Assembly: GCA_964539385.1 (NCBI GenBank)
Contig: CAZIJC010000001.1
Span: forward strand, 16,860-80,859
Direction: 5' to 3'
Length of the DNA: 64,000 nucleotides
From: an uncultured Anaerolineales bacterium
Lineage (GTDB): Bacteria; Planctomycetota; Phycisphaerae; FEN-1346
The notes beneath the pieces are model-generated. The model was given only the letters and a program-made list of their open reading frames with translations, ran no database searches and was not told the DNA's origin. The translations under genes were made by a program, and so were the position numbers. Below, in pieces: positions 7,835 to 33,584 of the stretch; position 1 is the first letter of the stretch; the number at the start of each line of letters is the position of its first letter.

Positions 7835-7840
7835 CCGCGC

Positions 7841-7868
7841 GGTTAGCCGCCGGGCTTGCCCGGCGCGT
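7841..7868. repeat. REP-like GC-rich hairpin (CGCCGGGC-ttg-GCCCGGCG), copy 1
   Basis: ggttagccgccgggcttgcccggcgcg sits immediately after the rSAM stop. An identical 27-mer recurs at 13646-13672. Confidence 0.6.
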
Positions 7869-7908
7869 TACGTGACCCGCCCGTACGGGCGCATTATGAA
7901 GGATACCT

Positions 7909-9564: not shown

Positions 9565-9577
9565 GGAACGTCGCCCC

Positions 9578-10516: not shown

Positions 10517-10518
10517 CC

Positions 10519-12427: not shown

Positions 12428-13624
12428 ATGAGACGACACGCCGCGCTTACCGCCTGCGTGGTGCTGGTCGTATGGTCGATGGGCTGCGAGCAGCCGGAGC
12501 CGCCCGCACCTGCGCCGGCATACGGCAAGATGTCACCCGACTGGCCGATGTTTCGCGGCGCCCCCGGCATGAGAAGCGTCGCAGAGGGCAATTTGCCCGA
12601 CGCGCTGACTCTGAAGTGGAAGTTCGAGACACAGGACGCCGTCCGCTCATCCGCTGCCATCGTCGGCGGCCGCGCCTTCGTCGGCTCCGACGACGCTCGC
12701 CTGTACGCCATCGATCTGGCCTCCGGCAAGATGGTCTGGGCCTTCAAGACCGACGACACCGTTGAGGCCTCGCCGCTCGTCCTCGACGGCGTCGTGTACG
12801 TCGGCTCATCCGACGGTTTCCTCTACGCCATCGACGCCGCCAGCGGCACGCTGAACTGGAAATACGAGACGGACGACAAGATCCTGGGCGCGGCCAACTG
12901 GACGACCTCGCCCGACGGCGGCCGCAAGTGGATCCTCGTCGGCGGTTACGACACGCGGCTGCACTGCGTCGAGGCTGCCGACGGCAAAGCCGTCTGGACG
13001 CTCGAGACCGCCAACTTCATCAACGGGGCCGCCGCCGTCTCGGCCGGCAGGACCGTCTTCGGCAGTTGCGACGCCCGGATTCACGTCGTCGGCGTCGCCG
13101 ACGGGGTAGAGATGGCGTCGATCGAGGCGGGTGCGTACATCGCCGGCTCGGCCGCCATGGCCGCCGGCCGCGTCTACGTGGGGCACTACGAAGGCGAACT
13201 CCTGTGCGCCGACCTGGCCACGTCCAAAGTCATCTGGCGGTACGGCGATGGCGAGGCCGCATTTTACTCCTCGCCGGCGGTCGGCGAGCGGACGGTTGTC
13301 ATCGGCGCTCGCGATCAGCGTCTCCATGCGGTGGACCGCGCGAGCGGCAAGCGCCTCTGGAGGTTCGCGACACGCGGCGACGTCGACTCCTCGCCCGTCA
13401 TCTGCGGCGACAAGGTCGTGGTCGGCTCGAACGACGGGCGGATCTACTTGGTGCGATTGGCCGACGGCAGGGAGGTCTGGTCGTTCGAGACGGGCAAACC
13501 CGTGTCGGCCTCGCCGGCGGTAGCGGCCGACCGCGTGGTCGTCGGCGGCGAGGACGGCGTCGTTTACTGCTTCGGACCCAAGAGCACCACGAGCACCGTG
13601 CGCCGAACTCTCCGTGGTTTGTAA
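12428..13624 (+). CDS. PQQ-like beta-propeller repeat lipoprotein (BamB-like family)
   Basis: Tool ORF 12329..13624. Internal start MRRHAALTACVVLVVWSMGC has a lipoprotein-type signal and a GGAGG SD 8 nt upstream. Repeated blocks like GSxDGxLYAxDaasGkxxW. Confidence 0.7.
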   Translation: MRRHAALTACVVLVVWSMGCEQPEPPAPAPAYGKMSPDWPMFRGAPGMRSVAEGNLPDALTLKWKFETQDAVRSSAAIVGGRAFVGSDDARLYAIDLASGKMVWAFKTDDTVEASPLVLDGVVYVGSSDGFLYAIDAASGTLNWKYETDDKILGAANWTTSPDGGRKWILVGGYDTRLHCVEAADGKAVWTLETANFINGAAAVSAGRTVFGSCDARIHVVGVADGVEMASIEAGAYIAGSAAMAAGRVYVGHYEGELLCADLATSKVIWRYGDGEAAFYSSPAVGERTVVIGARDQRLHAVDRASGKRLWRFATRGDVDSSPVICGDKVVVGSNDGRIYLVRLADGREVWSFETGKPVSASPAVAADRVVVGGEDGVVYCFGPKSTTSTVRRTLRGL

Positions 13625-13645
13625 GCAAAGCGCCGGCACACGTCT

Positions 13646-13672
13646 GGTTAGCCGCCGGGCTTGCCCGGCGCG
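13646..13672. repeat. REP-like GC-rich hairpin, copy 2 (identical to 7841-7868)
   Basis: ggttagccgccgggcttgcccggcgcg sits immediately after the stop of the PQQ lipoprotein gene. Confidence 0.6.
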
Positions 13673-13690
13673 TCTGCGATGGAGGTGACC

Positions 13691-14395
13691 ATGGCCGACA
13701 CACCGTCGCTGGTCAAACTCGAACACGTGACCAAGACGTACGAGACGCCCGGCGGCGAGCAGTTGACCGTCCTGGACGATGTCTCGCTGACCGTCGCCGG
13801 CGGTGAATCGCTCGCCGTCGTCGGGCCGTCCGGAAGCGGCAAGAGCACGCTCCTGAACATCATCGGGACACTCGACCGCCCGACGAGCGGCCGCGTGCTG
13901 CTCGACGGCCTGGACCTGTCGCACCTGACCGACGACGACCTGGCCGCCATCCGCAGCGGCCGCATCGGGTTCGTCTTTCAGTTGCATCACCTGCTGCCGC
14001 AGTGCACGGCCCTGGAGAACGTTCTGGTGCCCGCGATGGCCGGGGGCGGCGCGGTGAGCCCGCAGAGGGAGCAGCGCGGGCGGCAGTTGCTCCAGCGCGT
14101 GGGCCTCTCGGACCGTATGGCGTACCGGCCGGGACATCTCTCGGGCGGCGAGCGGCAGCGGGTGGCGGTGGCGCGGGCACTCATCAACGAGCCGACGCTG
14201 CTCCTGGCCGACGAACCCACCGGGTCGCTCGACCGGGCGGCGTCGGAGAACCTGGAGGAGTTGCTCGTGGAACTCAACCGCGAGGAAGGCGTCACGCTCA
14301 TCGTCGTCACGCACGCCGCGGCGCTGGCGGCGCACATGGCGCGGGCGATGGAACTTCGCGACGGCCGCCTCGAACGCCTGGAACAGACGGGATGA
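13691..14395 (+). CDS. ABC transporter ATP-binding protein (LolD/MacB family)
   Basis: Walker A motif GPSGSGKST, signature LSGGERQRVAVARAL, Walker B LLLADEPT. Start ATG 13691 has a GGAGGTGA SD. Confidence 0.85.
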   Translation: MADTPSLVKLEHVTKTYETPGGEQLTVLDDVSLTVAGGESLAVVGPSGSGKSTLLNIIGTLDRPTSGRVLLDGLDLSHLTDDDLAAIRSGRIGFVFQLHHLLPQCTALENVLVPAMAGGGAVSPQREQRGRQLLQRVGLSDRMAYRPGHLSGGERQRVAVARALINEPTLLLADEPTGSLDRAASENLEELLVELNREEGVTLIVVTHAAALAAHMARAMELRDGRLERLEQTG

Positions 14396-14399
14396 GTCC

Positions 14400-14472
14400 C
14401 GCGCGGTGGGCAATCCTGCCCACCGCGCGTGCCGTATCGTAAAGGCGCGGCGGGCAGGATTGCCCGCCGCGC
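14400..14472. repeat. Pair of near-identical 12-13 bp-stem palindromic hairpins in opposite orientation (BIME/REP-like) between the ABC ATPase and permease genes
   Basis: Hairpin 1 is cgcgcggtgggca-atcc-tgcccaccgcgcg (14400-14429). Hairpin 2 is gcgcggcgggca-ggat-tgcccgccgcgc (14445-14472). The loops are reverse complements of each other. Confidence 0.6.
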
Positions 14473-14484
14473 GGGGACTGGGTC

Positions 14485-17400
14485 ATGAACCTTCGGACAC
14501 TGGTGGCGCGGAGCCTGCGGTTCCACTGGCGAAGCCACCTGGGCGTCGTCCTGGGCGCCGCGGTGGCCACGACGGTTCTGGTCGGGGCGCTGGTGGTGGG
14601 CGACTCGGTCCGCTGGAGCCTGCGTCGGATGGCGCTGGCGCGGCTGGGCGAGACGGACCGTGCACTGGTTGCGTCGGAGCGGTTCTTCCGCGCCGCCCTT
14701 GCCGCGCAACTTTCTACTGCGGTTCGCGCCCCGGCGGCCGCCGTGTTGCAGGTGCGCGGCATGGCGGCACGCGAGGACGGGGCGGCCCGAGTCGGCGATG
14801 CCCAGGTGCTCGGCGTCGATGGCGGCTTCTGGGCAATGGGCGACCTGCAGCCGCCGCTCGCCGCCGGCGCAAAAGCCGCCGCCGTCATCAATGAGCGCTG
14901 CGCACGGGCGCTTCGCGTCAGGGCGGGCGACCGGATCTTCGTGCGGTTCGCAAAGCCGACCGCGGTCTCGCTCGACGCGCCCCTTTCGGGCGAGTCCGAG
15001 CGGGCGGAGGGGTTCCATCTGCCGGTGGCATTCGTGGCCCCCGACTCAGGAGTCGGCCGCTTCAGCCTCGCCGCCAACCAGGTGCCGCCCTACAACGTCA
15101 TCGTGCCGCTGGCGTGGCTCCAGGACCAACTCGACCTGGCGGGCAAGGCCAACGTCCTGCTGCTGGGCGCGCCGGCGCCCGGCAAGGGTGGATCGAGCGC
15201 GTCCGGCGCATTGGCCGAGAAGTTCCAACTCGCGGATGCCGAACACGAGGTCCGCTCCGTGCCCGGCCGCAACACGGCGGAACTGCGCACCAGCCGCGTC
15301 TTTCTCGACCCGCCTGTGGTGCGGGCGGCGGCTGAGGCCAACCCTGCCGCCGTCGGCGTCCTGACGTATCTGGTGAACGAACTCCGTGTAGGCGACCGGA
15401 CGACGCCGTACTCGATGGTCACGGCCATCGGTCCGCTAAGCGCCGGCGAAGAGTCGGCCAAAGGCGAATCGGTCGCGGGTCTGCTTCCAGGCAACATGGC
15501 CGACAACGAGATCGTCATTAACACGTGGCTGGCCGACGACTTGGGCGCCAAGGTCGGCGACGAACTTACTCTTGTCTACTTCGTGCCTGGGCCCATGCGG
15601 AAGTTGGAGACGCGGTCGAGCACGTTTCGCATCCGCGCGGTCGTGGCCATCGAAGGCGCGGCCGCCGACCGCACGCTAACGCCTGATTTCCCGGACCTTT
15701 CGGACATCGATAACTGCCGCGACTGGAGGCCAGGCTTCGAACCCGACTACGATAAAATCCGGACGAAGGACGAACAGTATTGGGATGACTACCGCGGCAC
15801 ACCGAAGGCGTTTATCACACTGGCAGCAGGGCAGCGGATGTGGAAGAACCGTTTCGGCGACCTGACGGCGGTACGCTTCCCGGGCATGAGCAAGGCCGAT
15901 GCCGAAGGCGCCATCCTGGGCCGCCTCCGGCCGGCGGCGCTCGGTTTCTTCTTCCAGCCGGTCCGCAAGCAGGCCCTTGCGGCAAGCGGCCAGGCCATGG
16001 ACTTCGGCCAACTGTTCCTGGGCCTGAGTTTTTTCCTCATCATCGCAGCGCTGGTGCTGACGGGCCTCTTGTTCGCTCTCGGCGCCGAGCAGCGGGCCGA
16101 AGAAACGGGCGTGCTGATGGCGGTCGGATTCCCGGCAAAGCGGGTGCGGCGGCTCATGCTGGCCGAGGGCGGGACGCTGACGCTCATTGGCGCCGTCGTC
16201 GGGACGGTCGGCGGCGTCGCGTACACGCGGCTGGTTCTCTGGGGTCTGGCCACGGTGTGGCAGAGCGCCGTCGGGGCGTCGGACATCGTGTACCACGGGT
16301 CGAGCACCACGCTGCTGGTGGGCGGCGGGGCGGGCGTCATCGTGGCTCTGCTCGCGATCTGGCTGACGTTGCGGCGGCAGGCTCGGACCCCGGCTCGCGA
16401 ACTCCTGACGGCGGGTGCGGATGCCCAACGGCGGGTCGGCCTGCCGCCGGGTGTGCGGCCGCTGCTGGGCTTGGGGCTGGCCTTGGCGTGCGCCCTCGGG
16501 GCGGCGATCCTGCTCATCGTCATGGGCTCCGCCAAAGGGCGGGCCCAGGCGGGCGTGTTCTTCGGCGCCGGGGCGCTGCTGCTGGTGGCGGGCCTCGCCC
16601 TGTGCCACGCGGCGCTGGCGCGGATGGCCGCATCGAGCGAGCGGCGGCGCCTGTCGCCCGTCGGCTTGGGCCTGCGGAACGCCACGCGGCGACGTGGCCG
16701 GAGCCTGGCAACCATCTCGCTGGTGGCGTTCGGGGCGTTCCTGGTCGTCGCCATCGGCGCGAACCGGCGGCCGCCGGTTGAAGATGCCGGTATCCGGTCG
16801 TCGGGCACGGGCGGCTTCCGGCTTTGGGGCCAGGCCACGCTGCCCGTCCATCACGATCTGCTGAGCAAGGACGGCCGCACACAATATGCCCTGCCGGACG
16901 ATCTGCCCCAGAAGGTGACCGAGATTGTGCCGATGCGGGTACACGAAGGCGACGACGCCTCGTGCCTGAATCTGAACCGCGTCCAGAGGCCGCGCCTGGT
17001 GGGCGTGCAGCCGGAGATGCTCGCGCATCGCAAGTCATTCACGTTTGCCGAGACGCTCGGGCAACTTGAAAAAGGCGAAAACGCATGGATGCTGCTCGCA
17101 AAGCGCGACCAGCCGGACGTCGTGCCGGCCATCGGCGACGCCGCCACCATCCAGTGGTCGCTCGGCAAGCAGGTCGGCGACGAGATGGCCTACACCGACG
17201 GCCGTGGCCGCGAGTTCCGGCTGCGCCTCGTCGGCGCGCTGGCCGGGTCGATCCTTCAGGGGTCGCTCCTCATCTCGGAGGAGGCGTTTCTGGAGCGGTT
17301 CCCATCCGAGAGCGGCTACCGCATGCTTTTGATTGATACGCCGCCTGAAAACACGAAAGAGGTCTCGGGAATCCTCTCGAAACAACTCGCCGACGTGGGG

Positions 17401-17835
17401 CTTGCCATTACGCCGACGGCCGACCGGCTGGCCGAACTGGCCGCCATGCAGAACACGTACCTGGCCATCTTCCAGACGCTCGGCGCACTGGGCCTGTTGC
17501 TGGGGAGCGTCGGCCTGGGGGTCGTCGTTCTGCGGAACGTTCTGGAACGGCGCGGGGAATTGGCGCTGGCGCGGGCGGTGGGCTTTCGGACACGGTCGCT
17601 CGACTGGCTGGTCCTGGCCGAGCACTGGGGCCTTCTGGCCATGGGCCTCGTCTGTGGCGTCGTGGCAGCCCTGGTCGCCGTGGCGCCGGTGATCTGGTCG
17701 GCAGCAGCGGCGGTGCCGTACCTGTCGCTGTCGGCGACGCTGGCGGCGGTGGCCGGAAGCGGCGTGCTGTGGACGTGGCTCGCCACGCGGTTCGCGCTTC
17801 GCGGCCCGCTGCTGGCAGCGTTGCGGAACGAATAG
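14485..17835 (+). CDS. ABC transporter permease with two FtsX-like domains and large extracytoplasmic domains (MacB-type, 1116 aa)
   Basis: N-terminal TM MNLRTLVARSLRFHWRSHLGVVLGAAV. Two four-helix FtsX-like blocks at about residues 500-650 and in the C-terminal 150 residues. It follows the ATPase gene. Confidence 0.7.
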   Translation: MNLRTLVARSLRFHWRSHLGVVLGAAVATTVLVGALVVGDSVRWSLRRMALARLGETDRALVASERFFRAALAAQLSTAVRAPAAAVLQVRGMAAREDGAARVGDAQVLGVDGGFWAMGDLQPPLAAGAKAAAVINERCARALRVRAGDRIFVRFAKPTAVSLDAPLSGESERAEGFHLPVAFVAPDSGVGRFSLAANQVPPYNVIVPLAWLQDQLDLAGKANVLLLGAPAPGKGGSSASGALAEKFQLADAEHEVRSVPGRNTAELRTSRVFLDPPVVRAAAEANPAAVGVLTYLVNELRVGDRTTPYSMVTAIGPLSAGEESAKGESVAGLLPGNMADNEIVINTWLADDLGAKVGDELTLVYFVPGPMRKLETRSSTFRIRAVVAIEGAAADRTLTPDFPDLSDIDNCRDWRPGFEPDYDKIRTKDEQYWDDYRGTPKAFITLAAGQRMWKNRFGDLTAVRFPGMSKADAEGAILGRLRPAALGFFFQPVRKQALAASGQAMDFGQLFLGLSFFLIIAALVLTGLLFALGAEQRAEETGVLMAVGFPAKRVRRLMLAEGGTLTLIGAVVGTVGGVAYTRLVLWGLATVWQSAVGASDIVYHGSSTTLLVGGGAGVIVALLAIWLTLRRQARTPARELLTAGADAQRRVGLPPGVRPLLGLGLALACALGAAILLIVMGSAKGRAQAGVFFGAGALLLVAGLALCHAALARMAASSERRRLSPVGLGLRNATRRRGRSLATISLVAFGAFLVVAIGANRRPPVEDAGIRSSGTGGFRLWGQATLPVHHDLLSKDGRTQYALPDDLPQKVTEIVPMRVHEGDDASCLNLNRVQRPRLVGVQPEMLAHRKSFTFAETLGQLEKGENAWMLLAKRDQPDVVPAIGDAATIQWSLGKQVGDEMAYTDGRGREFRLRLVGALAGSILQGSLLISEEAFLERFPSESGYRMLLIDTPPENTKEVSGILSKQLADVGLAITPTADRLAELAAMQNTYLAIFQTLGALGLLLGSVGLGVVVLRNVLERRGELALARAVGFRTRSLDWLVLAEHWGLLAMGLVCGVVAALVAVAPVIWSAAAAVPYLSLSATLAAVAGSGVLWTWLATRFALRGPLLAALRNE

Positions 17836-17933
17836 CCGGCCGGCGGGTTCAATCTCCCGGGAAAGCCCGCGCACCGCGCCGCACGGGTTGATTTCGCAGG
17901 GGTCCGGGGGTACGATAGTGCGGAAGCGAGACG

Positions 17934-17971
17934 GGGTCAGGCCCTTCCGAGACGGGGGCTGACCCTTTTTT
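17934..17971 (+). terminator. Rho-independent terminator-like hairpin with T6 tract
   Basis: GGGTCAG-(18 nt loop)-CTGACCC followed directly by TTTTTT. It lies about 100 nt after the permease stop and only 13 nt before the next ATG. Confidence 0.45.
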
Positions 17972-17983
17972 GCGGGGAGCCGT

Positions 17984-19420
17984 ATGAAGGCCTTTCTTCT
18001 GAGAGCGATTCCGGTCACCCTGGCGCTTGCGGGCATCCTGTCCGTGACGCTGTGGCTGAGGGCCACGCCGGCGTACGATCTGAAGAGGCGGACCGAGGTG
18101 GCGGGCCGGGGCGGGCTCCGGAAGGTGGAGGTCTCGTTCCCCGGAGACTTCCAGGCCGGCGACGGCCAACCGGCCGACCTGCGCGGTTCCTGGCCGCGCT
18201 TCCGCGGCGCCCGCTATGACGCCGTCAGCACGGAGGCCGTCCGGTTGGCCCGCACGTGGCCGCAGGGCGGGCCCAAGGCGCTGTGGAGCATCCCCGTGGG
18301 CATCGGGTACGCCGGGCCGGCGGTCAACCGCGGCCGCGTGTACCTGCTGGACTACGATGAAACGAAGGAGGCCGACACGCTGCGGTGCCTGTCGCTGGCC
18401 GACGGCGCCGAGATCTGGCGGCGATGGTACCAGATCCCCACCGTCAGCGATCACGGCATCTCGCGGACCGTCCCGGCCGTGACCGACCGGTCTGTGGTGA
18501 CGTTCGGCCCGAACTGCCACGTCATGTGCGTCGATGCCGAGACGGGCGACTTCCGCTGGGGCATCGACCTCGTGAAGGAGTACGGGGCCAGGGTGCCGAA
18601 GTGGTACGCCGGCCAGTGCCCGCTGATCGACGGCGGCCGGGCCATCCTTGCCCCGGCCGGCAAAGACGTCCTGATGATGGCCGTCGAGTGCGAGTCCGAC
18701 GGGGTGGTGGCCTGGAAAACGCCGAACCGTCGCGGCTGGAAGATGACCCATTCCTCGATCATCCCGATGGACTTGGGATCCTGGCGGATGTACATCTATT
18801 GCGCCAGCGGCGGCGTCGTTGGCGTGGCCGCCGAGGACGGGCCGGGCCACAAGGCCGGCGACGTCCTGTGGGAGTGCCCCCAGTGGCAGGTCCGTTTCGC
18901 CAACGCTCCGAGCCCCGTCGTCATCGGCGGCGGGCACGTGCTGCTGTCGGGCGGGTACGGCAGCGGCAGCATGATGATCCGAATCGTCGAGGAAGGCGAA
19001 GGGCTTGCCTGCAAGGTGGTTTGGCGGCTGGAGAAGTCCGGCCAGTTCGGTTCCGAGCAGCAGACGCCGCTGTTCTACAACGGACACATCTTCGGCGTTC
19101 TTCCGAAGGAGGCGCGGCCGCTCGGCGAGCAACTCATCTGCATGGACCTGGAGGGCAAACACCTCTGGACAAGCGGGCGGGCGAACCGGTTCGGTCTCGG
19201 CTCGTACATGATCGCCGATGGGCTGATCTTCGTGATGGATGACGAGGGCCTCTTGACGCTGGCCGAGGCCACGGCCGAAGGTTACAAACCGCTCGCCCGG
19301 GCCAAGGTGCTCGACGGGCACGAGACGTGGGCGCCGCTGGCCATCGCGGGCGGACGGCTCCTCGTTCGAGATCTGAAGAGGCTGCTCTGCCTGGACGTGC
19401 GCAAGGCGGGCCGGGAGTAG
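17984..19420 (+). CDS. PQQ-like beta-propeller repeat protein with N-terminal signal anchor
   Basis: 478 aa. N-terminal hydrophobic segment, then repeated propeller blades (GRVYLLDYD, VTFGPNCHVMCVDAETGDFRW and others). Confidence 0.65.
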   Translation: MKAFLLRAIPVTLALAGILSVTLWLRATPAYDLKRRTEVAGRGGLRKVEVSFPGDFQAGDGQPADLRGSWPRFRGARYDAVSTEAVRLARTWPQGGPKALWSIPVGIGYAGPAVNRGRVYLLDYDETKEADTLRCLSLADGAEIWRRWYQIPTVSDHGISRTVPAVTDRSVVTFGPNCHVMCVDAETGDFRWGIDLVKEYGARVPKWYAGQCPLIDGGRAILAPAGKDVLMMAVECESDGVVAWKTPNRRGWKMTHSSIIPMDLGSWRMYIYCASGGVVGVAAEDGPGHKAGDVLWECPQWQVRFANAPSPVVIGGGHVLLSGGYGSGSMMIRIVEEGEGLACKVVWRLEKSGQFGSEQQTPLFYNGHIFGVLPKEARPLGEQLICMDLEGKHLWTSGRANRFGLGSYMIADGLIFVMDDEGLLTLAEATAEGYKPLARAKVLDGHETWAPLAIAGGRLLVRDLKRLLCLDVRKAGRE

Positions 19421-19425
19421 CGGAC

Positions 19426-20388
19426 ATGGCACAGTGGAAACCGAGCGGCCTGGGGCCGGAGTTCACGTACGACCTGACGGAACTCAAGAAGGTCGATCCG
19501 GCGCTCATCCACTACGAGCAGGCCGCATCCGTGCCGACCGGCATGATGAAGCCGAAAGGCATCGCCGTCGGCGCAGACGGGCACCTGTTCGTCGCAGGCG
19601 ACGGGGGCGTGCGGGTGTTCGACCCCGCGGGCAAAACCGTCTTGCAGTTCGACGCCTCAAGGTTCGGAATTGCTAAAGGGGTGTTCGACGCCGCCGGCAA
19701 ACCCGTCTTGCAGTTCAAGACGGGCGGCGAGCCGCACTGCATCGCCCTCGGCAAGACCGGCACGGTTTACGTCGGGATGAAAGACCACGTCGAAGTGTAC
19801 GACGTATCGCTCAAACGCACGGCCGCATGGAAGGGCCTGGGCGAGAGAGCATACGTGACGAGTGTGGCCGCCGGCGAGGCCGACGTGTTCGTGGCCGACG
19901 CCGGCAACCGGGTGCTGCTGCGGTACGATACGTCGGGGAAGTTGCTGAACCGAATCGGCGAGGAAGATGCCGCGAAACATGCCCCGGGTCTCGTTGTGCC
20001 AAGCCCGTACTTCGACGTGGCCCTCGGGCCGGAAGGGATGCTGTGGCTCACCAACCCCGGTCGGCGGCGCGTGGAGTGCTACACGTACGACGGTGCGTTT
20101 CGCTTCGCGTGGGGGAAGTTCTCGATGAAGATCGAGGGCTTTTGCGGATGCTGCAACCCGACGCACCTGGCCATCGACACCGACGGCAACTTCATCACCA
20201 GCGAGAAAGGACTGCCGCGCGTCAAGGTGCACGACGACGAGGGTAACTTCAAGAGCGTCGTGGCGGCGCCCGCCGACTTCGCCGACGGCACCGTGGGTCT
20301 GGACCTGGCGGTGGACGCGAAAGGGCGAATCCTGGTGCTCGACCCCAAGCGGCGCGAGGTGCGCATCTTTGTGAAAAAGCGATCGTGA
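19426..20388 (+). CDS. NHL/YVTN-type six-bladed beta-propeller repeat protein
   Basis: Tool ORF 19327..20388. Start at MAQWKPSG (ATG 19426) is 5 nt after the upstream stop. There are six repeats of the [VI]A.(D/G).G..[FY]V.D type. It contains the unusual run GFCGCCNP. Confidence 0.55.
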   Translation: MAQWKPSGLGPEFTYDLTELKKVDPALIHYEQAASVPTGMMKPKGIAVGADGHLFVAGDGGVRVFDPAGKTVLQFDASRFGIAKGVFDAAGKPVLQFKTGGEPHCIALGKTGTVYVGMKDHVEVYDVSLKRTAAWKGLGERAYVTSVAAGEADVFVADAGNRVLLRYDTSGKLLNRIGEEDAAKHAPGLVVPSPYFDVALGPEGMLWLTNPGRRRVECYTYDGAFRFAWGKFSMKIEGFCGCCNPTHLAIDTDGNFITSEKGLPRVKVHDDEGNFKSVVAAPADFADGTVGLDLAVDAKGRILVLDPKRREVRIFVKKRS

Positions 20389-20566
20389 ATTTGAGATTTG
20401 AGACTTGAAATTCTCTGAGATCTGAGATGTGAAATCTCAGGATTTGAGATTTGAGACTTGAAATCTTCTGAGATCTGAGATGTGAAGTCTCAGGATTTGA
20501 GATTTGAAATTTCCTGAGATGTGAGATGTGAAATCTCAGGATTTGAGATTTCAGATAGCAGATTTG
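20389..20566. repeat. AT-rich tandem repeat, about 54 bp x 3.5, each unit containing a perfect hairpin CTGAGAT-gtgaa-ATCTCAG
   Basis: Unit ATTTGAGATTTGAGACTTGAAAT(T)CTCTGAGATCTGAGATGTGAA(A/G)TCTCAGG repeats starting immediately after the NHL gene stop. GC is far below the window average. The long minus-strand tool ORF 20249..21559 merely translates this repeat. Confidence 0.8.
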
Positions 20567-20595
20567 CGACGGCAGACGGCTGGAAGGAGTAGCGC

Positions 20596-20859
20596 ATGAC
20601 CAGACACAGGGACCGGTCCGAGCGGCGGCGCGAGTTCCTGCGCAGCCTCGTGCGGTACCCCGTCCTGGGTGCGCTGGGACTCTTGGGAGGCCGCCTGGTG
20701 AACAGGCAGGCCGGCACGGGCCCCATCCGGGCCGGCCGGAAGTGCAGCAACCGCGGCATCTGCCGGGGATGCCTCCGGCTCTCAACGTGCTGCCTGCCGC
20801 AGGCGTTGATGGCCCGCAACGTCCTCGACCGTGATGGGCCAAGGCGTCCCACTTTTTAG
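20596..20859 (+). CDS. Small Tat-signal-like, Cys-rich protein (87 aa), hypothetical
   Basis: Strong GGAAGGAG SD 7 nt before the ATG. SERRREFLRSL matches the twin-arginine motif, followed by a hydrophobic stretch. Cys pattern C-x5-C-x2-C-x6-CC. No recognisable family. Confidence 0.4.
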   Translation: MTRHRDRSERRREFLRSLVRYPVLGALGLLGGRLVNRQAGTGPIRAGRKCSNRGICRGCLRLSTCCLPQALMARNVLDRDGPRRPTF

Positions 20860-20934
20860 CCGCGACCCGCCCGGCAGGCCGATCGCGCACGGCGCCGGGA
20901 TGCCAGGCAGCACCTTTTAGCCGCGACCCGCTTG
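20852..20934. repeat. Two 17-19 bp direct repeats (cttttagccgcgacccgc) flanking an about 45 bp spacer
   Basis: The copies lie at about 20852-20870 and about 20916-20934, in the intergenic region before the Tat ferredoxin gene. The TTAGCCGCG core also occurs in the REP element at 7831-7850. Confidence 0.5.
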
Positions 20935-20977
20935 TCCGCCGAAGCCTTGGCGGAGGCGGAAAGGGGAGCGCGTAACG

Positions 20978-21562
20978 ATGCCGACAGACAACGCCACCGA
21001 CACCACGATCACCCGCCGCAACCTGTTCCGCAAAGGCGGTCTGGCCGCCGGCGCAGCAGTTGTGACCGGGACGGCCGCCGCCCTGGCTGCAAAAGGACGC
21101 TCGGACGGAACGGTCTGGCAGATCGATCCGGAAAAGTGCATCCAGTGCGGCAACTGCGCGACGTACTGCGTGCTGGACCCGAGCGCGGTCAAGTGCGTGC
21201 ACGCGCTCAAACTGTGCGGCTACTGCGACCTGTGCTTCGCCTACTTTTCGCCGGGCTTCGAACCGGAAGCCGGCATCGAGGTGCCCGCCGTCGAGAGCCA
21301 GTTGTGCCCGACCGAGGCCATCAAGCGGCGCTGGATCGAAGGACCACACTACGAGTACACCATCGACGAGGAACTGTGCATCGGGTGCGGCAAGTGCATC
21401 AAGGGATGCAACAATTTCGGCAACGGCTCGCTCTTCCTCCAGGTCATGCACAACCGCTGTGTGAACTGCAACGAGTGCTCCATCGCCGAAGCGTGCCCGT
21501 CGGATGCGTTTCAGCGCGTGCCCGCCGACCACCCCTACCTTCTGAAAGGCGAGGACCACTAA
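20978..21562 (+). CDS. Tat-exported 4Fe-4S ferredoxin-type protein (NapG/MauM-like)
   Basis: TRRNLFRKGGLAAGAAVV is a twin-arginine signal. Four Cys clusters are present (CIQCGNCATYC, CGYCDLC, CIGCGKCIKGC, CVNCNECSIAEACP). Confidence 0.7.
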   Translation: MPTDNATDTTITRRNLFRKGGLAAGAAVVTGTAAALAAKGRSDGTVWQIDPEKCIQCGNCATYCVLDPSAVKCVHALKLCGYCDLCFAYFSPGFEPEAGIEVPAVESQLCPTEAIKRRWIEGPHYEYTIDEELCIGCGKCIKGCNNFGNGSLFLQVMHNRCVNCNECSIAEACPSDAFQRVPADHPYLLKGEDH

Positions 21563-21564
21563 GT

Positions 21565-22899
21565 TTGAGACACTCTGTGCCCATTCTCGTGGCCCTCTTC
21601 CTGATGCCGGCGGCGTCGGCGCTTGGGGCCGAGCGTTTCGCGCTGCCCAAGTTCAAGAGCGGGTACGAGTTGCCGCCGCTTGAAGTCCCGCCGGCGAGTG
21701 CCGATGCGCTCGAGTACCTCGACGTCGCCGCCCTGGCGGCAGCGCTGGCGCTGGCATCGTACCTGGCGCTGCGTGCACGGTCGCGGCGGGCGCTGTGGGT
21801 GCTGATGGCCGCCTCGCTTGTGTACTTCGGTTTCTATCGCGGCGGGTGCATCTGCTCCATCGGCGCCATCCAGAACGTGGCCCTTGCGCTGTTGGACAAC
21901 GGATACGCGATACCGTTTACCGCCGTCGCGTTCTTCGTGATTCCGCTGGCGGTCACGCTTCTCGCCGGCCGAACGTTCTGCGCAGCCGTGTGCCCGCTGG
22001 GGGCGCTCCAGGACATCGTTGCGGTGCGGCCGCTTCGCGTGCCCGCGTGGCTGGACCACGGACTGGGACTCCTGGCCTACGTGTACCTTGGCGCGGCGGT
22101 GCTGTTCGCCGCCACAGGCGCGGCGTTTCTCATCTGCGAGTACGATCCGTTTGTGGCGATCTTCCGCCTGGTTCCTTTCACGCGCCCCAATGCCATGATG
22201 GAAGCGTTCGGCGGCAGCACGGGGATGCTGGTCCTCGGCGCGGGGTTCGTGCTGGTGGGCCTCTTTATCGCGCGGCCGTACTGCCGGTGGCTGTGTCCGT
22301 ATGGGGCGATCCTGCGGCTGCTGTCGCGCGCGTCGAAGTGGCACGTCACGATCACCCCGGACGATTGCGTCCACTGTACGCTGTGCGAAGATGCCTGCCC
22401 CTTCGGCGCGATCGCCAAACCGACGACCGACTTGCCACGCCCCGACCGCCTGATCGACCGCCGCCGCCTCGCACTGCTGCTGATCCTCGTCCCGCTGCTG
22501 CTGGCGGGCGGCGGCTACTTCGGACGGTGGCTCGGCGAACCGTTCTCGCGCGTGCACTTCACGGTGCAGCAGGCCCAGCGCGTCCGCCTCGAGGAGACCG
22601 GCCAAATCACCGGCACCGACGACATCAGCGACGCGTTCTACAAGACGCAGCGGCCGCGAGAGGAACTCTACGCCGAGGCCGACGCCATCCGCGGCCGCTT
22701 CGACATCGGCGGCACCCTCCTGGGGATCTGGGCCGGGCTGGTCGTCGCCGTGAAACTCATCCACCTGTCCGTCTATCGCACGCGGACTGATTACGAGCCC
22801 GACCGCGCCACGTGCCTGTCGTGCGGCCGATGTTTCAAATACTGCCCGGTTGAACGGAAGCGCCTCAAAACACTTAAGGGTGAACCGACAACGCCATGA
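21565..22899 (+). CDS. NapH/MauN-like integral membrane 4Fe-4S polyferredoxin
   Basis: In frame with tool ORF 20932..22899. The probable TTG/GTG start at about 21565-21577 gives the signal/TM stretch VPILVALFLMPAASALG. Motifs FCAAVCPLGALQD and YCRWLCPYGAIL sit in TM-flanked loops, with C-terminal CVHCTLCEDACP and CLSCGRCFKYCP. The stop overlaps the next gene's ATG. Confidence 0.65.
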   Translation: MRHSVPILVALFLMPAASALGAERFALPKFKSGYELPPLEVPPASADALEYLDVAALAAALALASYLALRARSRRALWVLMAASLVYFGFYRGGCICSIGAIQNVALALLDNGYAIPFTAVAFFVIPLAVTLLAGRTFCAAVCPLGALQDIVAVRPLRVPAWLDHGLGLLAYVYLGAAVLFAATGAAFLICEYDPFVAIFRLVPFTRPNAMMEAFGGSTGMLVLGAGFVLVGLFIARPYCRWLCPYGAILRLLSRASKWHVTITPDDCVHCTLCEDACPFGAIAKPTTDLPRPDRLIDRRRLALLLILVPLLLAGGGYFGRWLGEPFSRVHFTVQQAQRVRLEETGQITGTDDISDAFYKTQRPREELYAEADAIRGRFDIGGTLLGIWAGLVVAVKLIHLSVYRTRTDYEPDRATCLSCGRCFKYCPVERKRLKTLKGEPTTP

Positions 22900-24689
22900 C
22901 CGCCGACGCCAACAAACCGACCGACGCCGACAAGACCAACGATGCCCGGCAGGCCCGCCAGGACGAACTGGCCCGGGTCCGATACCAGGCGGCCGTGGGA
23001 ACCGCCATCGTGGCCGGCACGTTCTGCCTGCTGGTCGGCGTGACGCTGGCCGTCGCGCACTTCCAGAGAACGACGGTGGGGCTCGATGAATCCGAGGAAC
23101 TCAATAACCTGAGAAACGCGCTGCTCAAGGTCTCGGACCCCGAGGACCGCAAGGTCATTCGCGAAGACATCCGGCGGCGAGACCTCGAGTTGCGCCAGGA
23201 CTTCTTCGGCCGCCGCGCGTTCGCCAAGACCGGCGGGTACCTGCTCCTGGCCGGCCTGGCCGTCTTCATCGCCGGCGCGGGCCTTGCCGCCGCCTGCCGC
23301 AAACGGCTGCCGTCGCCGCTCCGCGCCGACCAGCGCAAGCCGGCCATCGGCGCCCAGGCGGCACGGTGGGCGGTGACCGTCGTCGCGGTAACGCTCGTCG
23401 CCGGCGGCGTCTTCGTGATCGCCTACTACGGCGGCGCACCGGACGGCGAAGCACTGGACGGCGGCGGTCAGGCGGTTGCCGTCAAGGACCCGCCCGGCCG
23501 CGAAGAGATCCGCAAACACTGGCCGCGTTTCCGCGGGCCGGACGGTTCCGGCCACAGCGCCTACACGAACATCCCCACCACCTGGAACGGCAAGACGGGC
23601 GAGAACATCCTCTGGAAGACGCCCGTGCCGCTGCCCGGCGAGAACTCGCCCGTCGTGTGGGGCGACCGTGTTTTCCTCTCCGGCGCGACGGAACAGCGGC
23701 GCGAGGTCTACTGCTTCAGCGCCGCCGACGGCAAACTCCTCTGGCAGAAACCGGTCTCGACACCCGCCGGGAGCATGACCGAGCCACCCGAAATCCTCGA
23801 AGATACCGGCTTTGCCTGCCCCACCTGTGCGACCGACGGTCGCTTCGTCTGCGCCATCTTCGCCAACGCCGACATCGCATGCTTCGACGTCGATGGCCGA
23901 GAGCGGTGGGTCCGCAACCTCGGCGCGTTCAAGAACACCTACGGCTACGCCTCGTCGCTCCATATCTACCGCAACACCCTCCTCGTGCTCGTGGACCAGG
24001 GCACACCGAGCAAGCCGCTGTCATACCTGCTGGCGCTCGACCTGGTGACGGGCAAGACGGCCTGGCGAACCGACCGGCCCGTCTCGGGTTCCTGGGCGAC
24101 GCCCATCCTCGCCCACACCGCCAAGCGCGAAGAGTTCATCGCCGTCGGCTGCCCGTGGGTCATCGCCTACAACCCCGCCGACGGGAAGGAACTGTGGCGG
24201 GCCAAGGTCCTCGACGGCGACGTGGCCCCCTCGCCCGTCTACCACTCCGGCACGGTTCTTGCGGTCAACACGGGGGCACAGTTAACCGCCATCCCGACGG
24301 GCGGCTCCGGCGACATCACCAAAACCGGCATCGCCTGGACCGCCGAGGACGGGCTGCCGGATATCGTCAGCCCCGTGACCGACGGCAAAGTGGTGCTCCT
24401 GGTGACCACCGACGGCCTCCTGACCTGCTACGCCGCCGCCGACGGCAAACTCCTGTGGGAACATGAGATCGACGCCGTCTTCATGTCGTCGCCCGGCCTG
24501 GTCGGCGATCGTGTCTACCTGATGGACGAGAAGGGCGTGATGCGCATCTTCACCGCCGCCGGCGGCTACAAGGAAGTGGCCAAGGCCGAACTGGGGGAGA
24601 AATCGCACTCCTCCCCCGCCTTTCTCAACGGACGCCTTTACCTGCACGGCAAGAAACACCTGTTCTGCATCGCAAAGAAGACCGACTAG
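22896..24689 (+). CDS. Membrane-anchored PQQ-like beta-propeller repeat protein
   Basis: 597 aa. Three predicted TM helices at the N-terminus, then propeller blades ([27 protein letters not shown] and others). ATG overlaps the upstream stop (ATGA). Confidence 0.65.
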
Positions 24690-24763: not shown

Positions 24764-27136
24764 ATGACGCAAACAGACCTTGACCTGGCATTCGTGGATG
24801 AGGCGGTCGAGCGAATCGGTCGCGGCCCGGAGTCCGCCATCCCCATCCTCCAGGCCATCCAGGACCACTACCGCTACCTGCCCGCCGAAGCGCTGCGCCG
24901 CGTCTGCCGTCTGACCGAGATCACCCCCGCCCGGATCGTCGGCGTTGCGACGTTCTACACGCAGTTCCGCCATCGCCCTATGGGCAAACACCTGGTCCGC
25001 GTCTGCATCGGAACCGCCTGCCACGTCAAAGGCGCAGGGGTGATCCACGATGCCTTTCTCAAGCACCTCGGCGTCCCGGATGGCGAGGACACCGACCCGG
25101 ACGGTCTCTTCACGGTCGAGAGGGTCGCCTGCCTCGGCTGCTGCACGCTCGCGCCGGTCGCCCAGATCGGCGACCTCACCTACGGCCACCTGACGCCCGA
25201 GCGCACGGGGCAGGCCATCCACGACTTCCTGGAATCCGAGAAGCGCCGCGCCGACCGCCGGCCCGGCGAGGGCGGCCCGGCGAAACCCGGAGCCGAAGCC
25301 GCCCTGCCGGCGGGAGAGATCCGCATTACCCTGGACACCTGCTGCATAGCGCGCGGCAGCGGCTACGTGTACGAGGCACTCCTGGACGCCGTAGCCGACA
25401 CCGGCGCGCGGGCCGTCGTCAAGGGCGTCGGCTGTACCGGCATGACGTACCTGACGCCTCTGGTCACCGTAACCGAGCCCGGCCGCCCCCCTGCCCTGTA
25501 CGCCAACGTCGCGCCGCAGGACGCCGAGGCGATCGTGCTCCGTCATTTTCGGCCGCACGGACACCTCGCACGGGCCGGCAAGGCCGTCTCGCGGCTGCTT
25601 GACCAGGTTCTGACCGACGAGGCGTGGGAACCTCTCCAGCGCTACGCCGTCGATGTTCGCGATCCGCCGATCTCCGAGTTTCTCGGACCGCAAAAGCATA
25701 TCGCCACCGAGCACTCCGGCCGCGTGCAGCCGACGAACCTCGACGAATACCTCGACCGCGACGGGTTCCAGGCGCTCGAACGGTGCGTCACGGGCCGCTC
25801 GCCCGACGAGGTGATCGAGGAGGTTCGCGTCTCGGGCCTGCGCGGCCGCGGCGGCGCGGGGTACCCCACGAGCCTGAAGTGGCAGGCCGTCCGCCGCGCC
25901 GACGCCGACAAGAAGTACGTCGTCTGCAACGGCGACGAGGGCGACCCCGGCGCGTTCATGGACCGCATGATCCTCGAATCGCATCCGTACCGCGTCCTGG
26001 AGGGCATCGCGATTGCCGCCACGGCGGTCGGCGCCGAGGAAGGCGTGCTCTACATCCGGGCGGAGTATCCGCTGGCTGTCCGCCGCATCAGCGAGGCCAT
26101 CCGCCGCTCGACCGAGCGCGGCTTCCTGGGCGACGATATCCTGGGCACCGGCCGCCGGCTGCACCTGCGGATCATGCAAGGCGCCGGCGCGTTTGTGTGC
26201 GGCGAGGAGACGGCCCTGCTGGAATCGATCATGGGCCGCCGCGGCATGCCGCGACTCAGGCCGCCCTTCCCCGTTGAAAGCGGCCTCTGGGGCTGCCCGA
26301 CGCTCGTCAACAACGTCGAAACGCTTGCCCTGCTGCCGTGGATCATCCGAAACGGTGCGGCGGCCTTCGCCGAACTCGGCACCGACCACAGCAAAGGCAC
26401 GAAGGTTTTCTCGCTGGCCGGCAAGGTCAAGCGCGGCGGCCTGATCGAGGTGCCCATGGGGGTCACCATCCGCGAGATCGTCGAGGAGATCGGCGGCGGC
26501 ATGACGGGAGACCGCAAGTTCAAGGCCGTACAGATAGGCGGCCCTTCGGGCGGATGCCTCCCCGAGCGCCTGGCCGATATCCCGGTTGACTACGAGGCGC
26601 TGACCGAGGTCGGCGCCATGATGGGCTCGGGCGGCCTCGTGGTCCTCGACGACAAGGACTGCATCGTCGATATCGCCCGCTACTTCCTGGCGTTCACGCA
26701 GGACCAGTCGTGCGGCCGGTGCACGCCCTGCCGCGTCGGCACGCGCCGGATGCTCGACGTCCTGGACCGCCTGTGCGAGGGCCAGGGCAGGAAAGGCGAT
26801 ATCGAGGAACTTGAGGAACTGGCCTGGTACATCAAGAAGGCCAGTCTCTGTGGCCTCGGCAGCACGGCGCCCAATCCGGTCCTCACGACGATCGAGTATT
26901 TCCGCGATGAATACGAGGCCCACATCGATGGCCGCTGCCCCGCCGGACGCTGCAAGGCCCTCATCACCTACTCGATTACCGACGACTGCATCGGCTGCAC
27001 GCAGTGCGCCCAGCACTGCCCGTCCGAAGCGATCGCCATGCGCCCATACGAGAAACACGAGATCCAAGAGGACAAATGCGTCCGCTGCGACACCTGCCGC
27101 CAGGTCTGCCCGGTCGATGCCGTGGAAGTGACGTGA
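24764..27136 (+). CDS. NuoE-NuoF fusion flavoprotein (NADH-binding, FMN, Fe-S; HoxF/HndC/FdsB-like) with two C-terminal 4Fe-4S ferredoxin domains
   Basis: 790 aa. N-terminal NuoE-like thioredoxin-fold 2Fe-2S Cys residues (CIGTACH, CLGCC). NuoF motifs GRGGAGYPT, FVCGEETALLESI and SCGRCTPC. The C-terminal CIGCTQCAQHCP and CVRCDTCRQVCP are 4Fe-4S motifs. Confidence 0.8.
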   Translation: MTQTDLDLAFVDEAVERIGRGPESAIPILQAIQDHYRYLPAEALRRVCRLTEITPARIVGVATFYTQFRHRPMGKHLVRVCIGTACHVKGAGVIHDAFLKHLGVPDGEDTDPDGLFTVERVACLGCCTLAPVAQIGDLTYGHLTPERTGQAIHDFLESEKRRADRRPGEGGPAKPGAEAALPAGEIRITLDTCCIARGSGYVYEALLDAVADTGARAVVKGVGCTGMTYLTPLVTVTEPGRPPALYANVAPQDAEAIVLRHFRPHGHLARAGKAVSRLLDQVLTDEAWEPLQRYAVDVRDPPISEFLGPQKHIATEHSGRVQPTNLDEYLDRDGFQALERCVTGRSPDEVIEEVRVSGLRGRGGAGYPTSLKWQAVRRADADKKYVVCNGDEGDPGAFMDRMILESHPYRVLEGIAIAATAVGAEEGVLYIRAEYPLAVRRISEAIRRSTERGFLGDDILGTGRRLHLRIMQGAGAFVCGEETALLESIMGRRGMPRLRPPFPVESGLWGCPTLVNNVETLALLPWIIRNGAAAFAELGTDHSKGTKVFSLAGKVKRGGLIEVPMGVTIREIVEEIGGGMTGDRKFKAVQIGGPSGGCLPERLADIPVDYEALTEVGAMMGSGGLVVLDDKDCIVDIARYFLAFTQDQSCGRCTPCRVGTRRMLDVLDRLCEGQGRKGDIEELEELAWYIKKASLCGLGSTAPNPVLTTIEYFRDEYEAHIDGRCPAGRCKALITYSITDDCIGCTQCAQHCPSEAIAMRPYEKHEIQEDKCVRCDTCRQVCPVDAVEVT

Positions 27137-33488: not shown

Positions 33489-33536
33489 GGGTGTATCCGT
33501 TTGCGAGCCGCGAGCGCCAACGAGCGGGCGCCTTAC

Positions 33537-33584
33537 GGTCGCGGCTCGAAAAGGCTCATTGTCGCGGCTCGAAAAGGCTCATTT
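33537..33584. repeat. Perfect 24-bp tandem direct repeat (GTCGCGGCTCGAAAAGGCTCATT x2) between the two HlyD-like genes
   Basis: On the coding (minus) strand each copy starts with ATG and reads as an 8-codon micro-ORF (MSLFEPRQ*, MSLFEPRP*). The first begins 1 nt after the upstream gene's stop. Confidence 0.7.

Follow-up and report, generated by a model that had tools for sequence, protein, structure and literature searches.

A conserved gene cluster of uncultured bacteria predicted to link a Bfu-type NADH-oxidizing module to periplasmic propeller proteins

A 64,000-nucleotide stretch of DNA from an uncultured bacterium of the Planctomycetota (class Phycisphaerae; contig CAZIJC010000001.1, positions 16,860 to 80,859), referred to below as the window, harbours a plus-strand gene cluster that, on balance, we read as encoding one conserved, heme-free electron conduit built of iron–sulphur (Fe-S) and flavin proteins. 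This conduit would cross the membrane and connect NADH, with or without ferredoxin, to an assembly of propeller proteins in the periplasm. Eight of the genes, at 12428–24689, had been recognized in a preliminary description of the sequence: a membrane-tethered β-propeller (Prop1), an ATP-binding cassette (ABC) ATPase, a duplicated FtsX permease, a second propeller (Prop2), an NHL-repeat propeller, a ferredoxin with a twin-arginine translocation (Tat) signal, a NapH-like membrane polyferredoxin and a third propeller (Prop3). All eight are present on the plus strand, their coordinates and domain content are confirmed, and 'envelope redox system', the label then attached to them, is a fair one. 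The boundaries were drawn too narrowly: the conserved unit also includes a small Tat-signal protein with four conserved cysteines, a fused NuoE–NuoF protein (NuoEF) and a GltD-like flavoprotein.

The evidence that carries this reading is in the first place syntenic. The NHL propeller, a family with more than 4600 homologues at E ≤ 1e-5, was used as an anchor to scan GTDB, with each species represented by a single genome; at least 583 coding stretches matched, and the best 80 loci were analysed by running the window proteins against them with tblastn, a gene being scored only where the locus was long enough. A second, independent anchor, the GltD-like protein, was searched against metagenome contigs and gave 543 related stretches, in which the same gene set is recovered. 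Altogether, 160 related loci, spread over more than 10 phyla, contain the set. Lineages represented among the best 80 are Planctomycetota (Pirellulales, Phycisphaerae, Sedimentisphaerales, Brocadiia), Aminicenantes, Bacteroidota, Verrucomicrobiota, Kiritimatiellae, Latescibacterota, KSB1, Calditrichota, Armatimonadota, Spirochaetes and Aegiribacteria. Around the NHL gene of the GTDB loci, the Tat ferredoxin lies downstream in 63 of 64 and the NapH-like gene is present in 56 of 59; Prop3 (51 of 54), NuoEF (46 of 50) and the GltD-like gene (38 of 45) are found nearby, and Prop2 lies upstream in 64 of 71. Most of the apparent misses are split matches or insertions that push a gene past the end of the locus. 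Across phyla NuoEF and the GltD-like gene follow Prop3, with spacers usually of about 10 nt.

The order of the blocks varies between lineages. In Planctomycetota it is Prop1-(GT4)-ABC-FtsX-Prop2-NHL-small-Fdx-NapH-Prop3-NuoEF-GltD', where GT4 is a glycosyltransferase gene, Fdx the Tat ferredoxin and GltD' the GltD-like gene. In Aminicenantes, Bacteroidota and Latescibacterota it is (Prop2 paralogues)-Prop2-NHL-small-Fdx-NapH-Prop3-NuoEF-GltD'-Prop1-GT4-ABC-FtsX, the Prop1-GT4-ABC-FtsX block standing downstream of the GltD-like gene in eight loci (L085, L087, L091, L092, L095, L112, L156 and L157). The linkage between transporter and redox genes thus survives rearrangement, which argues for function. 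The check on synteny proposed in the preliminary description supports this part of its reading: the arrangement recurs across phyla, and its genes form one functional module rather than scattered BamB paralogues.

Within the window the genes belong to an uninterrupted plus-strand run from 5442 to 29279, on which three sources agree: the listing of open reading frames (ORFs), a gene call based on GC content at third codon positions (GC3), and the Joint Genome Institute (JGI) gene calls from the identical metagenome contig (JGI 3300008517 Ga0111034_1081972). The GC content of the window is 68%. Intergenic spacers range from -4 to +207 nt, and the start of Prop3 overlaps the NapH-like stop by 4 nt; the 'short or overlapping junctions' reported earlier hold for most of the cluster, the exceptions being three spacers longer than 100 nt. 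Terminator-like sites are not enriched over shuffled sequence (13 against 10.5 ± 3.4 expected), and the number of internal terminators or promoters within the window is no different from that in shuffled sequence. The longer spacers, together with two insertions, namely an AT-rich tandem repeat at 20389–20556 (168 bp) in the spacer between the NHL gene and the small Tat-signal ORF and a small PDDEXK_3-family ORF (27222–27620; 129–132 aa) between NuoEF and the GltD-like gene, could be taken as signs that unrelated same-strand genes lie side by side by chance. Synteny contradicts this explanation, as order and composition are kept in the 160 loci mentioned above, across more than 10 phyla, and the linkage outlasts rearrangement; chance is hardly credible here.

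In relatives both interrupted junctions are tight. NuoEF and the GltD-like gene are only about 8–15 nt apart in most related loci examined, and the PDDEXK_3 ORF probably represents a small gene of a selfish or mobile kind. The spacer between the NHL gene and the small ORF, repeat-filled in the window, is short or overlapping elsewhere. The repeat itself consists of a 53-bp unit present 3.3 times and built of TGAGATYTGAGA-like words; the word TGAGATYTGAGA occurs in 7 copies in the repeat and nowhere else in the window, against 0.09 expected. Each unit holds the inverted repeat CTGAGAT...ATCTCAG, and the RNA fold of the repeat reaches -71 kcal/mol (z = -4.07). It looks like an inserted element of the REP or MITE kind (repetitive extragenic palindrome or miniature inverted-repeat transposable element), or a structure that processes or stabilizes mRNA.

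The cytoplasmic end of the proposed conduit is formed by the two genes that lie beyond the range of the preliminary description. NuoEF (24764–27136, plus strand), a fusion of the BfuC–BfuB or HydC–HydB type, carries the domains PF01257, PF01512, PF10589 and Fer4_21. Residues 185–789 align full-length with the BfuB subunits of solved complexes at E values of 1e-180 to 1e-212; the PDB matches are 9bov_B (5.8e-212), the Stn subunit 8oh5_B (2.1e-205), NfnB 9n5u_B (2.3e-202) and HydB 7q4v_B, as well as HydABC 8a6t. The C-terminal 2×[4Fe-4S] domain that characterizes BfuB is present as Fer4_21 at residues 740–788, and its cysteines (C742, 745, 748, 752, 772, 775, 778 and 782) show at least 90% conservation among 48 orthologues; to our knowledge, respiratory NuoF is devoid of this eight-cysteine domain. 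The feature expected of BfuC, a NuoE-like [2Fe-2S] domain (PF01257, residues 12–154), is fused to BfuB and retains C81, C86, C123 and C127. In the same 48 orthologues 291 positions of NuoEF are at least 90% conserved, and identity across phyla is at least 55%.

The GltD-like Fe-S flavoprotein (27711–29279, plus strand; PF13510, PF14691, Fer4_20, and PF07992 over residues 193–228 only) combines an N-terminal [2Fe-2S] domain, NuoG-type [4Fe-4S] motifs, a partial GltD-like FAD domain and C-terminal Fe-S clusters. The cluster-binding N-terminus typical of BfuA is present and conserved, and a domain for a third substrate is missing. The alignment covers residues 5–296 and 420–674 of 9bov_A and skips about 125 residues; the skipped residues, 296–420, correspond to what we take to be the site of the NADPH Rossmann domain in GltD-type folds. 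At 522 aa, against 963–1178 aa for NfnA and StnA, the protein stops short of the molybdopterin-like domain, and this short form of about 520 aa is common to all 11 aligned orthologues. The identity of an Nfn-Bfu or Stn transhydrogenase was considered and rejected, the NADPH-binding Rossmann domain being missing. As judged from these alignments, NuoEF and the GltD-like protein are the predicted core of a Bfu-type enzyme resembling HydABC and NfnABC, with a BfuA-like subunit devoid of a third-substrate site.

Two proteins could carry electrons from this core across the membrane. The NapH-like integral-membrane polyferredoxin (21577–22899, plus strand; two stretches of PF12801 Fer4_5) starts with a signal-like sequence and contains approximately seven hydrophobic spans. 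Its conserved motifs comprise two of CX3CP type (C135xxxC139P and C236xxxC240P) and two of ferredoxin type (C264/267/270/274P and C413/416/419/423P), all situated in Lys/Arg-rich loops that are taken as cytoplasmic; the conserved cysteines 91, 93 and 187 sit in the other loops. The NapG-like ferredoxin (20978–21562, plus strand) displays the Tat motif TRRNLF, matches Fer4 families and is predicted to bind 4×[4Fe-4S] through 17 cysteines arranged in four cluster motifs, R13, R14 and all 17 cysteines being at least 90% conserved in 70 orthologues. No CxxCH motif is found in any protein of the gene set.

This pair had been described as 'NapG/NapH-like' and quinol-linked, with the implication that a quinol dehydrogenase feeds the propellers, coupled to a MacB-type exporter, and that NuoEF and the GltD-like protein are an unrelated enzyme. 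The likeness stands at the level of domains: the NapH/MauN family is the best NCBIfam match of the membrane subunit, the CX3CP motifs are present, and the ferredoxin shares with NapG a Tat signal and four cluster motifs. As in NapGH, MauMN and NosGH, a Tat-exported four-cluster ferredoxin accompanies a membrane protein in which two CX3CP motifs are combined with two cytoplasmic motifs of ferredoxin type. The scores, however, fall well under the family cut-offs (TIGR02163, 52.5 bits against 213; PRK09477, 47.5 against 234), and the membrane subunit differs from NapH in its signal-like N-terminal segment, its seven or so spans and its extended C-terminus, in which two additional helices precede the second cluster motif. 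Neither napA, napB, napC nor any other known terminal reductase occurs in the window cluster or in the 160 related loci; a catalytic partner of the Nap, Mau or Nos type and a cytochrome are equally missing, and the pair is instead tied to an NADH-oxidizing module. The exporter half of the proposal is opposed by the permease, which is of a duplicated FtsX type, and by the lack of a membrane-fusion protein in the conserved set. Moreover, the NapGH-like pair is almost always followed by the NADH-oxidizing BfuBC protein (46 of 50 loci), a linkage which points to NADH and/or ferredoxin rather than quinol as partner; the GltD-like gene comes after Prop3 in 38 of 45. The quinol-fed arrangement as a whole is quite improbable, and the electron source it names is probably wrong.

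On the periplasmic side, the candidate catalytic elements are the NHL propeller and the small Tat-signal protein. The six-bladed NHL propeller (19426–20388, plus strand; NHL repeats PF01436) belongs to a family with an invariant F-x-G-C-C-N-P signature (F239, G241, C242, C243, N244 and P245 in the orthologue alignment), which includes two vicinal cysteines. The small protein (20596–20859, plus strand; 87 aa, GC3 0.86), present among the JGI gene calls and missed in the preliminary description, has a twin-arginine signal and five cysteines, of which four are conserved. Invariant in the alignment are the RR pair, the four cysteines spaced C-x5-C-x2-C-x5-C and the P-x-A, the last two forming part of the longer motif C-x5-C-x2-C-x5-C-x-(L/E)-P-x-A. 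A jackhmmer search started from this ORF drifted into the Tat ferredoxin and was replaced by a motif search; according to phmmer and this motif search the small protein adjoins the NHL gene in at least 51 of the 80 loci. It has no relative in Pfam, NCBIfam or the PDB. The GCCNP-type NHL propeller and the four-cysteine Tat mini-protein are two new, unannotated families.

Most NHL orthologues possess an N-terminal transmembrane (TM) anchor, and clear Tat signals are found in four (L019, L039, L074 and L077); the latter suggest that the family is exported folded. The NHL protein of the window's own clade has neither signal peptide nor TM anchor, and co-export with the adjoining Tat-signal mini-protein is the simplest inference for this anchor-less group. 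NHL proteins of the occ cluster, described in a preprint on Mn(III) reduction, were considered as relatives and set aside, as they are cytochrome-linked and belong to an unrelated context.

The three remaining propellers all contain PQQ_2 repeats, named after pyrroloquinoline quinone (PQQ). Prop1 (12428–13624, plus strand; PQQ_2/Beta-prop_ACSF4, with PF13570 at 8.7e-64 and PF13360 at 1.3e-42) is an eight-bladed, membrane-tethered propeller which had been called a lipoprotein. It does have a signal peptide, and a lipobox or a TM anchor is seen at 34 orthologue N-termini; in the window the lipobox, VVWSMGC, is borderline and non-canonical, so that Prop1 is here a probable lipoprotein. In related loci Prop1 always adjoins the GT4/ABC/FtsX block. 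Prop2 (17984–19420, plus strand) is an eight-bladed PQQ_2 propeller signal-anchored by an N-terminal TM helix, in which the loops connecting the blades hold His, Arg and Gln residues that are invariant among the aligned orthologues and a Cys that is nearly so. Prop3 (22896–24689, plus strand; PF13360 at 4.8e-28) has three TM spans, at residues 36–54, 108–126 and 158–176, followed by its propeller.

None of the three reaches the cut-off of BamB or of PQQ-dependent dehydrogenases, in agreement with the earlier suggestion that their role is not that of canonical BamB. With the BamB models TIGR03300 and PRK11138 the scores are 141 (Prop1), 23.4 (Prop2) and 72.2 (Prop3), against a TIGR03300 cut-off of 285.2 bits, and the best score with the dehydrogenase models TIGR03075 and TIGR03074 is 88.5 against 480. 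The genes pqqA, B, C and E are absent from the window, where the one related feature is a weak PqqD-like domain carried by an unrelated HlyD-like protein. Apart from these scores, the propellers differ from both families in being TM-anchored and in residing in a redox operon rather than among genes for the β-barrel assembly machinery (BAM). The labels 'BamB' and 'PQQ-binding' mislead when given to these propellers. Structure prediction, put forward earlier as a way of finding cofactor or ligand pockets, gave confident models whose matches remain at the level of the fold. The Prop2 model has a predicted local distance difference test (pLDDT) score of 88.7 and resembles YxaL, BamB, Rv3035 and tetrathionate hydrolase in fold only; the AlphaFold2 model of the NHL propeller has a pLDDT of 84.6 and, with Foldseek against the PDB, retrieves only generic NHL domains, such as those of TRIM2, Thin and Brat.

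The number of propellers is not constant between lineages. Aminicenantes and Bacteroidota loci contain 2–4 tandem Prop2 paralogues (22–30% identity) upstream of the orthologous Prop2, Planctomycetota loci two Prop2 paralogues after the GltD-like gene, and the propeller genes of a single cluster can reach six or seven (L085–L095, L016, L036, L047, L070 and L165).

The ABC ATPase (13679–14395, plus strand; PF00005 at 1.9e-35, 238 aa in the JGI call) matches the LolD, MacB and FtsE models at 1e-57 to 1e-76; with the LolD model TIGR02211 it scores 255.7 bits, under the cut-off of 307.75. The permease (14485–17835, plus strand; 1116 aa) contains two FtsX domains (PF02687 at 6.4e-19, in two stretches), at least nine hydrophobic spans and two large periplasmic domains. 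Besides a weak MacB_PCD match, its C-terminus matches the ADOP duplicated-permease model (4.2e-8), and its sole PDB sequence match is YtrF (0.0096). The pair thus has what characterizes a type VII ABC system, an FtsX-fold TM domain with a periplasmic domain and an ATPase of the LolD/MacB/FtsE type, as do MacB, LolCDE, FtsEX, YbbAP and YtrEF. It differs from these in the single, duplicated permease, the lack of an adaptor and the constant company of Prop1 and usually GT4. Its description as a 'MacB-type' exporter is not supported: the ATPase is separate, the permease is of a duplicated 10-TM FtsX type, and no membrane-fusion (MacA or HlyD) gene belongs to the conserved set among related loci. 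A MacAB–TolC pump was rejected on the same features, since MacB is a fused protein with four TM spans. In style the transporter resembles the mechanotransducers LolCDE, FtsEX and YbbAP more closely than a MacAB–TolC efflux pump.

The company of this transporter has suggested a further alternative, an envelope-biogenesis machine in which propellers, Lol/FtsEX-like ABC proteins, GT4 and, in PVC lineages, hopanoid-like terpenoids would make a glycolipid or lipoprotein of the outer envelope, or export it, and in which the redox module would be only a servicing device that reduces periplasmic disulfides, for example, or matures a cofactor. A GT4 gene follows Prop1 in 26 of the GTDB loci and in 16 of those from metagenomes, and the nearest folds to Prop2 (YxaL, BamB and Rv3035) would fit such a role. 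A possibly associated terpenoid block of five genes (5442–12339, plus strand; Pfam and NCBIfam assignments) encodes a Fer4 protein, a radical SAM enzyme with weak similarity to a B12 domain, a DUF116–polyprenyl synthase fusion, a prenyltransferase-toroid protein and a 606-aa class II cyclase resembling squalene–hopene cyclase (SHC), with a DADDTA motif. The block is linked in three arrangements: upstream of Prop1 (window and L003), downstream of the GltD-like gene (L100, L103, L110 and L152) and directly upstream of Prop2 (L007 and L022); DUF116, SHC and polyprenyl synthase also occur together in the terpenoid cluster of a Bipolaricaulota isolate. Against this stand the absence of GT4 from the window and the confinement of the terpenoid linkage to PVC lineages. 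The redox genes, moreover, are the most conserved and least dispensable of the set, as illustrated by the identity of NuoEF across phyla and by a Verrucomicrobial core that lacks the ABC block, and a chain of eight Fe-S proteins would be large for a housekeeping supply of reductant. An envelope-biogenesis machine is accordingly very improbable, marginally more so than the quinol-fed arrangement.

The transmembrane conduit favoured here can be pictured as follows. The cytoplasmic BfuBC and BfuA-like proteins would oxidize NADH and probably also exchange electrons with ferredoxin. This module would dock on the cytoplasmic [4Fe-4S] clusters of the NapH-like polyferredoxin, from where electrons would traverse the membrane to the Tat-exported NapG-like 4×[4Fe-4S] ferredoxin and end in a periplasmic catalytic module composed of the four-cysteine mini-protein and the NHL propeller with its vicinal Cys–Cys pair. 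In the window's clade the NHL protein, lacking an export signal of its own, would piggy-back on the Tat mini-protein. Prop1–3, as PQQ-less, tethered eight-bladed propellers, may be scaffold or substrate-handling subunits. The LolD-like ATPase and the duplicated FtsX permease would constitute an adaptor-less type VII 'mechanotransmission' machine that, together with Prop1 and in most lineages GT4, performs ATP-driven work in the periplasm, either extracting or delivering a hydrophobic or envelope-bound substrate or assembling the propeller enzyme. The picture is drawn from the domain content, topology signals, conserved cysteine motifs and conserved gene linkage observed across the loci; from these we infer physical complex formation, outward electron flow and thiol or Fe-S chemistry at the NHL site.

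Several observations weigh against the conduit or parts of it. Verrucomicrobial loci contain a minimal core, small-NHL-Fdx-NapH-Prop3-NuoEF-GltD', with neither Prop2 nor the ABC block nearby, and both may be dispensable, or encoded elsewhere in those genomes. A few GltD-like homologues lie outside the cluster (L130, L153 and L160). In the window, the PDDEXK_3 gene stands between NuoEF and the GltD-like gene, and the repeat parts the NHL gene from the small ORF, so that these genes may not all be co-transcribed here. The loop of the NHL model just before GCCNP (residues 232–241) is of low confidence, and the small protein could hold Zn or form disulfides instead of binding an Fe-S cluster. Finally, NapH-family proteins are classically quinol dehydrogenases, and a quinone step is possible.

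The direction of flow is a separate issue. Outward transfer, by which fermentative hosts would gain an electron sink, to an oxidized, thiol-reactive compound is proposed with modest confidence because the candidate active sites contain only cysteines; that the acceptor is specifically a disulfide, a polysulfide or a similar oxidized compound of the envelope or the extracellular space is a doubtful further step. The same anatomy would serve inward flow, in which the periplasmic propellers and NHL protein oxidize an external low-potential donor; the NapG/NapH-like pair would hand the electrons on to the Bfu module, which would bifurcate them between NAD+ and ferredoxin. Such a redox loop would conserve energy in the manner of periplasmic hydrogenase or formate dehydrogenase systems, with protons released outside and consumed inside and hence a proton-motive force. 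Bfu enzymes are reversible, and Hyd-Bfu and Fdh-Bfu run in the bifurcating direction from their donor in vivo (PMC9304861). However, no recognizable donor-oxidizing subunit (hydrogenase, molybdopterin or Ni/Cu site) is encoded in the gene set. The host lineages are probably for the most part fermentative heterotrophs, to which an electron sink would be more useful, and inward flow appears unlikely.

In its fullest form the proposal describes a new class of membrane-integral Bfu-type complex whose third substrate lies outside the cytoplasm: the NADH and ferredoxin chemistry of BfuBC would be connected through a NapH/NapG-like wire to a Tat-exported NHL/four-cysteine enzyme that has so far gone unrecognized, assisted by an ATP-driven FtsX-type machine. 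We put this forward tentatively, as a reading somewhat less likely than not.

Additional genes accompany the cluster in some loci. A TonB-dependent receptor is inserted in a KSB1 variant (L039, 13563–15728), a DUF5916/CBM9 protein and a radical SAM enzyme in L007 (15898–18717), and a MaoC dehydratase and an RDD-family membrane protein in the Bacteroidota loci L047 and L165. These accessory genes, which also include Sde182-like proteins, are heterogeneous and give no consistent functional hint. Downstream of the cluster in the window, and convergent to it, lies a gene for a truncated SecA-like protein (29318–31309, minus strand; 663 aa, with SecA_DEAD, PP_bind and P-loop_SecA matches); a SecA-like neighbour is also present in L084, a 552-kb contig. 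Two HlyD-type membrane-fusion-like proteins follow at 31311–35473, one with a weak PqqD-like N-terminal domain of the kind that recognizes ribosomally synthesized and post-translationally modified peptides (RiPPs), the other with GAF domains; their genes are on the minus strand and are not conserved with the cluster. Further away are a CARDB-repeat protein of 843 aa (36324–38855, minus strand) and a protein of 870 aa (39057–41669, plus strand) with a hydrazine-synthase-alpha middle domain (PF18582, 4.3e-20) and a PD40 repeat.

The system is present in hundreds of species-level genomes of uncultured bacteria; the 240 best NHL homologues, retrieved with a planctomycete and a Bacteroidota query, bear only the names of metagenomes or metagenome-assembled genomes. 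Lineages such as Planctomycetota, Aminicenantes, Bacteroidota, KSB1, Latescibacterota and Verrucomicrobiota abound in anoxic sediments; most of what is said of their redox metabolism comes from annotation. No equivalog-level NCBIfam model names any protein of the set, searches of Pfam, NCBIfam and PDB sequences giving domain-level matches only, and literature on the combinations NHL/polyferredoxin/PQQ, Bfu/propeller, NapH/NuoF/NHL, FtsX/PQQ/NuoF/4Fe-4S/NHL and DUF116/polyprenyl/cyclase yielded no account of the gene set. Should the fullest form of the proposal hold, uncultured anaerobic phyla would share a widespread way of carrying out redox metabolism in the periplasm or outside the cell that has gone unstudied. 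The gene set is specific enough for direct testing. Bfu-type enzymes are central to anaerobic energy conservation, and the cluster ties one form of them, with an A subunit devoid of a substrate domain, to a membrane and periplasmic module; bifurcation or confurcation could in this way be coupled to chemistry outside the cytoplasm.

Comparison with known systems places the cluster most closely beside the Bfu family (HydABC and NfnABC/Stn; PDB 9n5u, 8oh5, 7q4v and 9bov). Shared are the NuoE-like/NuoF-like core with the extra C-terminal 2×[4Fe-4S] domain and a BfuA-type subunit with N-terminal [2Fe-2S], His-ligated [4Fe-4S] and GltD-like FAD domain. The window differs in the fusion of BfuB with BfuC, in a BfuA lacking the NADPH-binding and C-terminal molybdopterin-like domains, and in the tie to a membrane polyferredoxin and periplasmic proteins. 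Two membrane-bound Bfu types, Mbh-Bfu and Nuo-Bfu, have been predicted so far, and 17 BfuB clades are without assigned function (PMC9304861). The membrane-linked form in the window is neither Mbh-Bfu nor Nuo-Bfu.

Two further systems offer parallels of organization. In the Nos system the propeller enzyme NosZ is supplied with electrons by NosR or NosGH and accompanied by the ABC machine NosDFY and the lipoprotein NosL; the window likewise combines a periplasmic β-propeller, an electron donor of the NapH family, an ABC machine acting on the periplasm and a lipoprotein. The catalytic and ABC parts are not homologous, NosY being of ABC-2 type and NosD a β-helix, and in place of histidine-rich Cu sites the candidate ligands in the window set are cysteines. 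Rnf and Nqr are heme-free, NADH- or ferredoxin-linked membrane complexes in which a NuoF-like module (RnfC), polyferredoxins and Cys-ligated centres lead electrons to the periplasmic side. The window set shares this heme-free, NADH/ferredoxin-linked mode of membrane electron transfer, and weak RnfB and RnfC matches are found among its proteins; it has no homologues of RnfA, D, E or G and no ion-translocating subunits, and periplasmic propellers stand where Rnf and Nqr have FMN-binding subunits. The parts come from known superfamilies; new is their combination, in which a predicted Bfu-family complex is joined to a novel module of membrane and periplasmic proteins.

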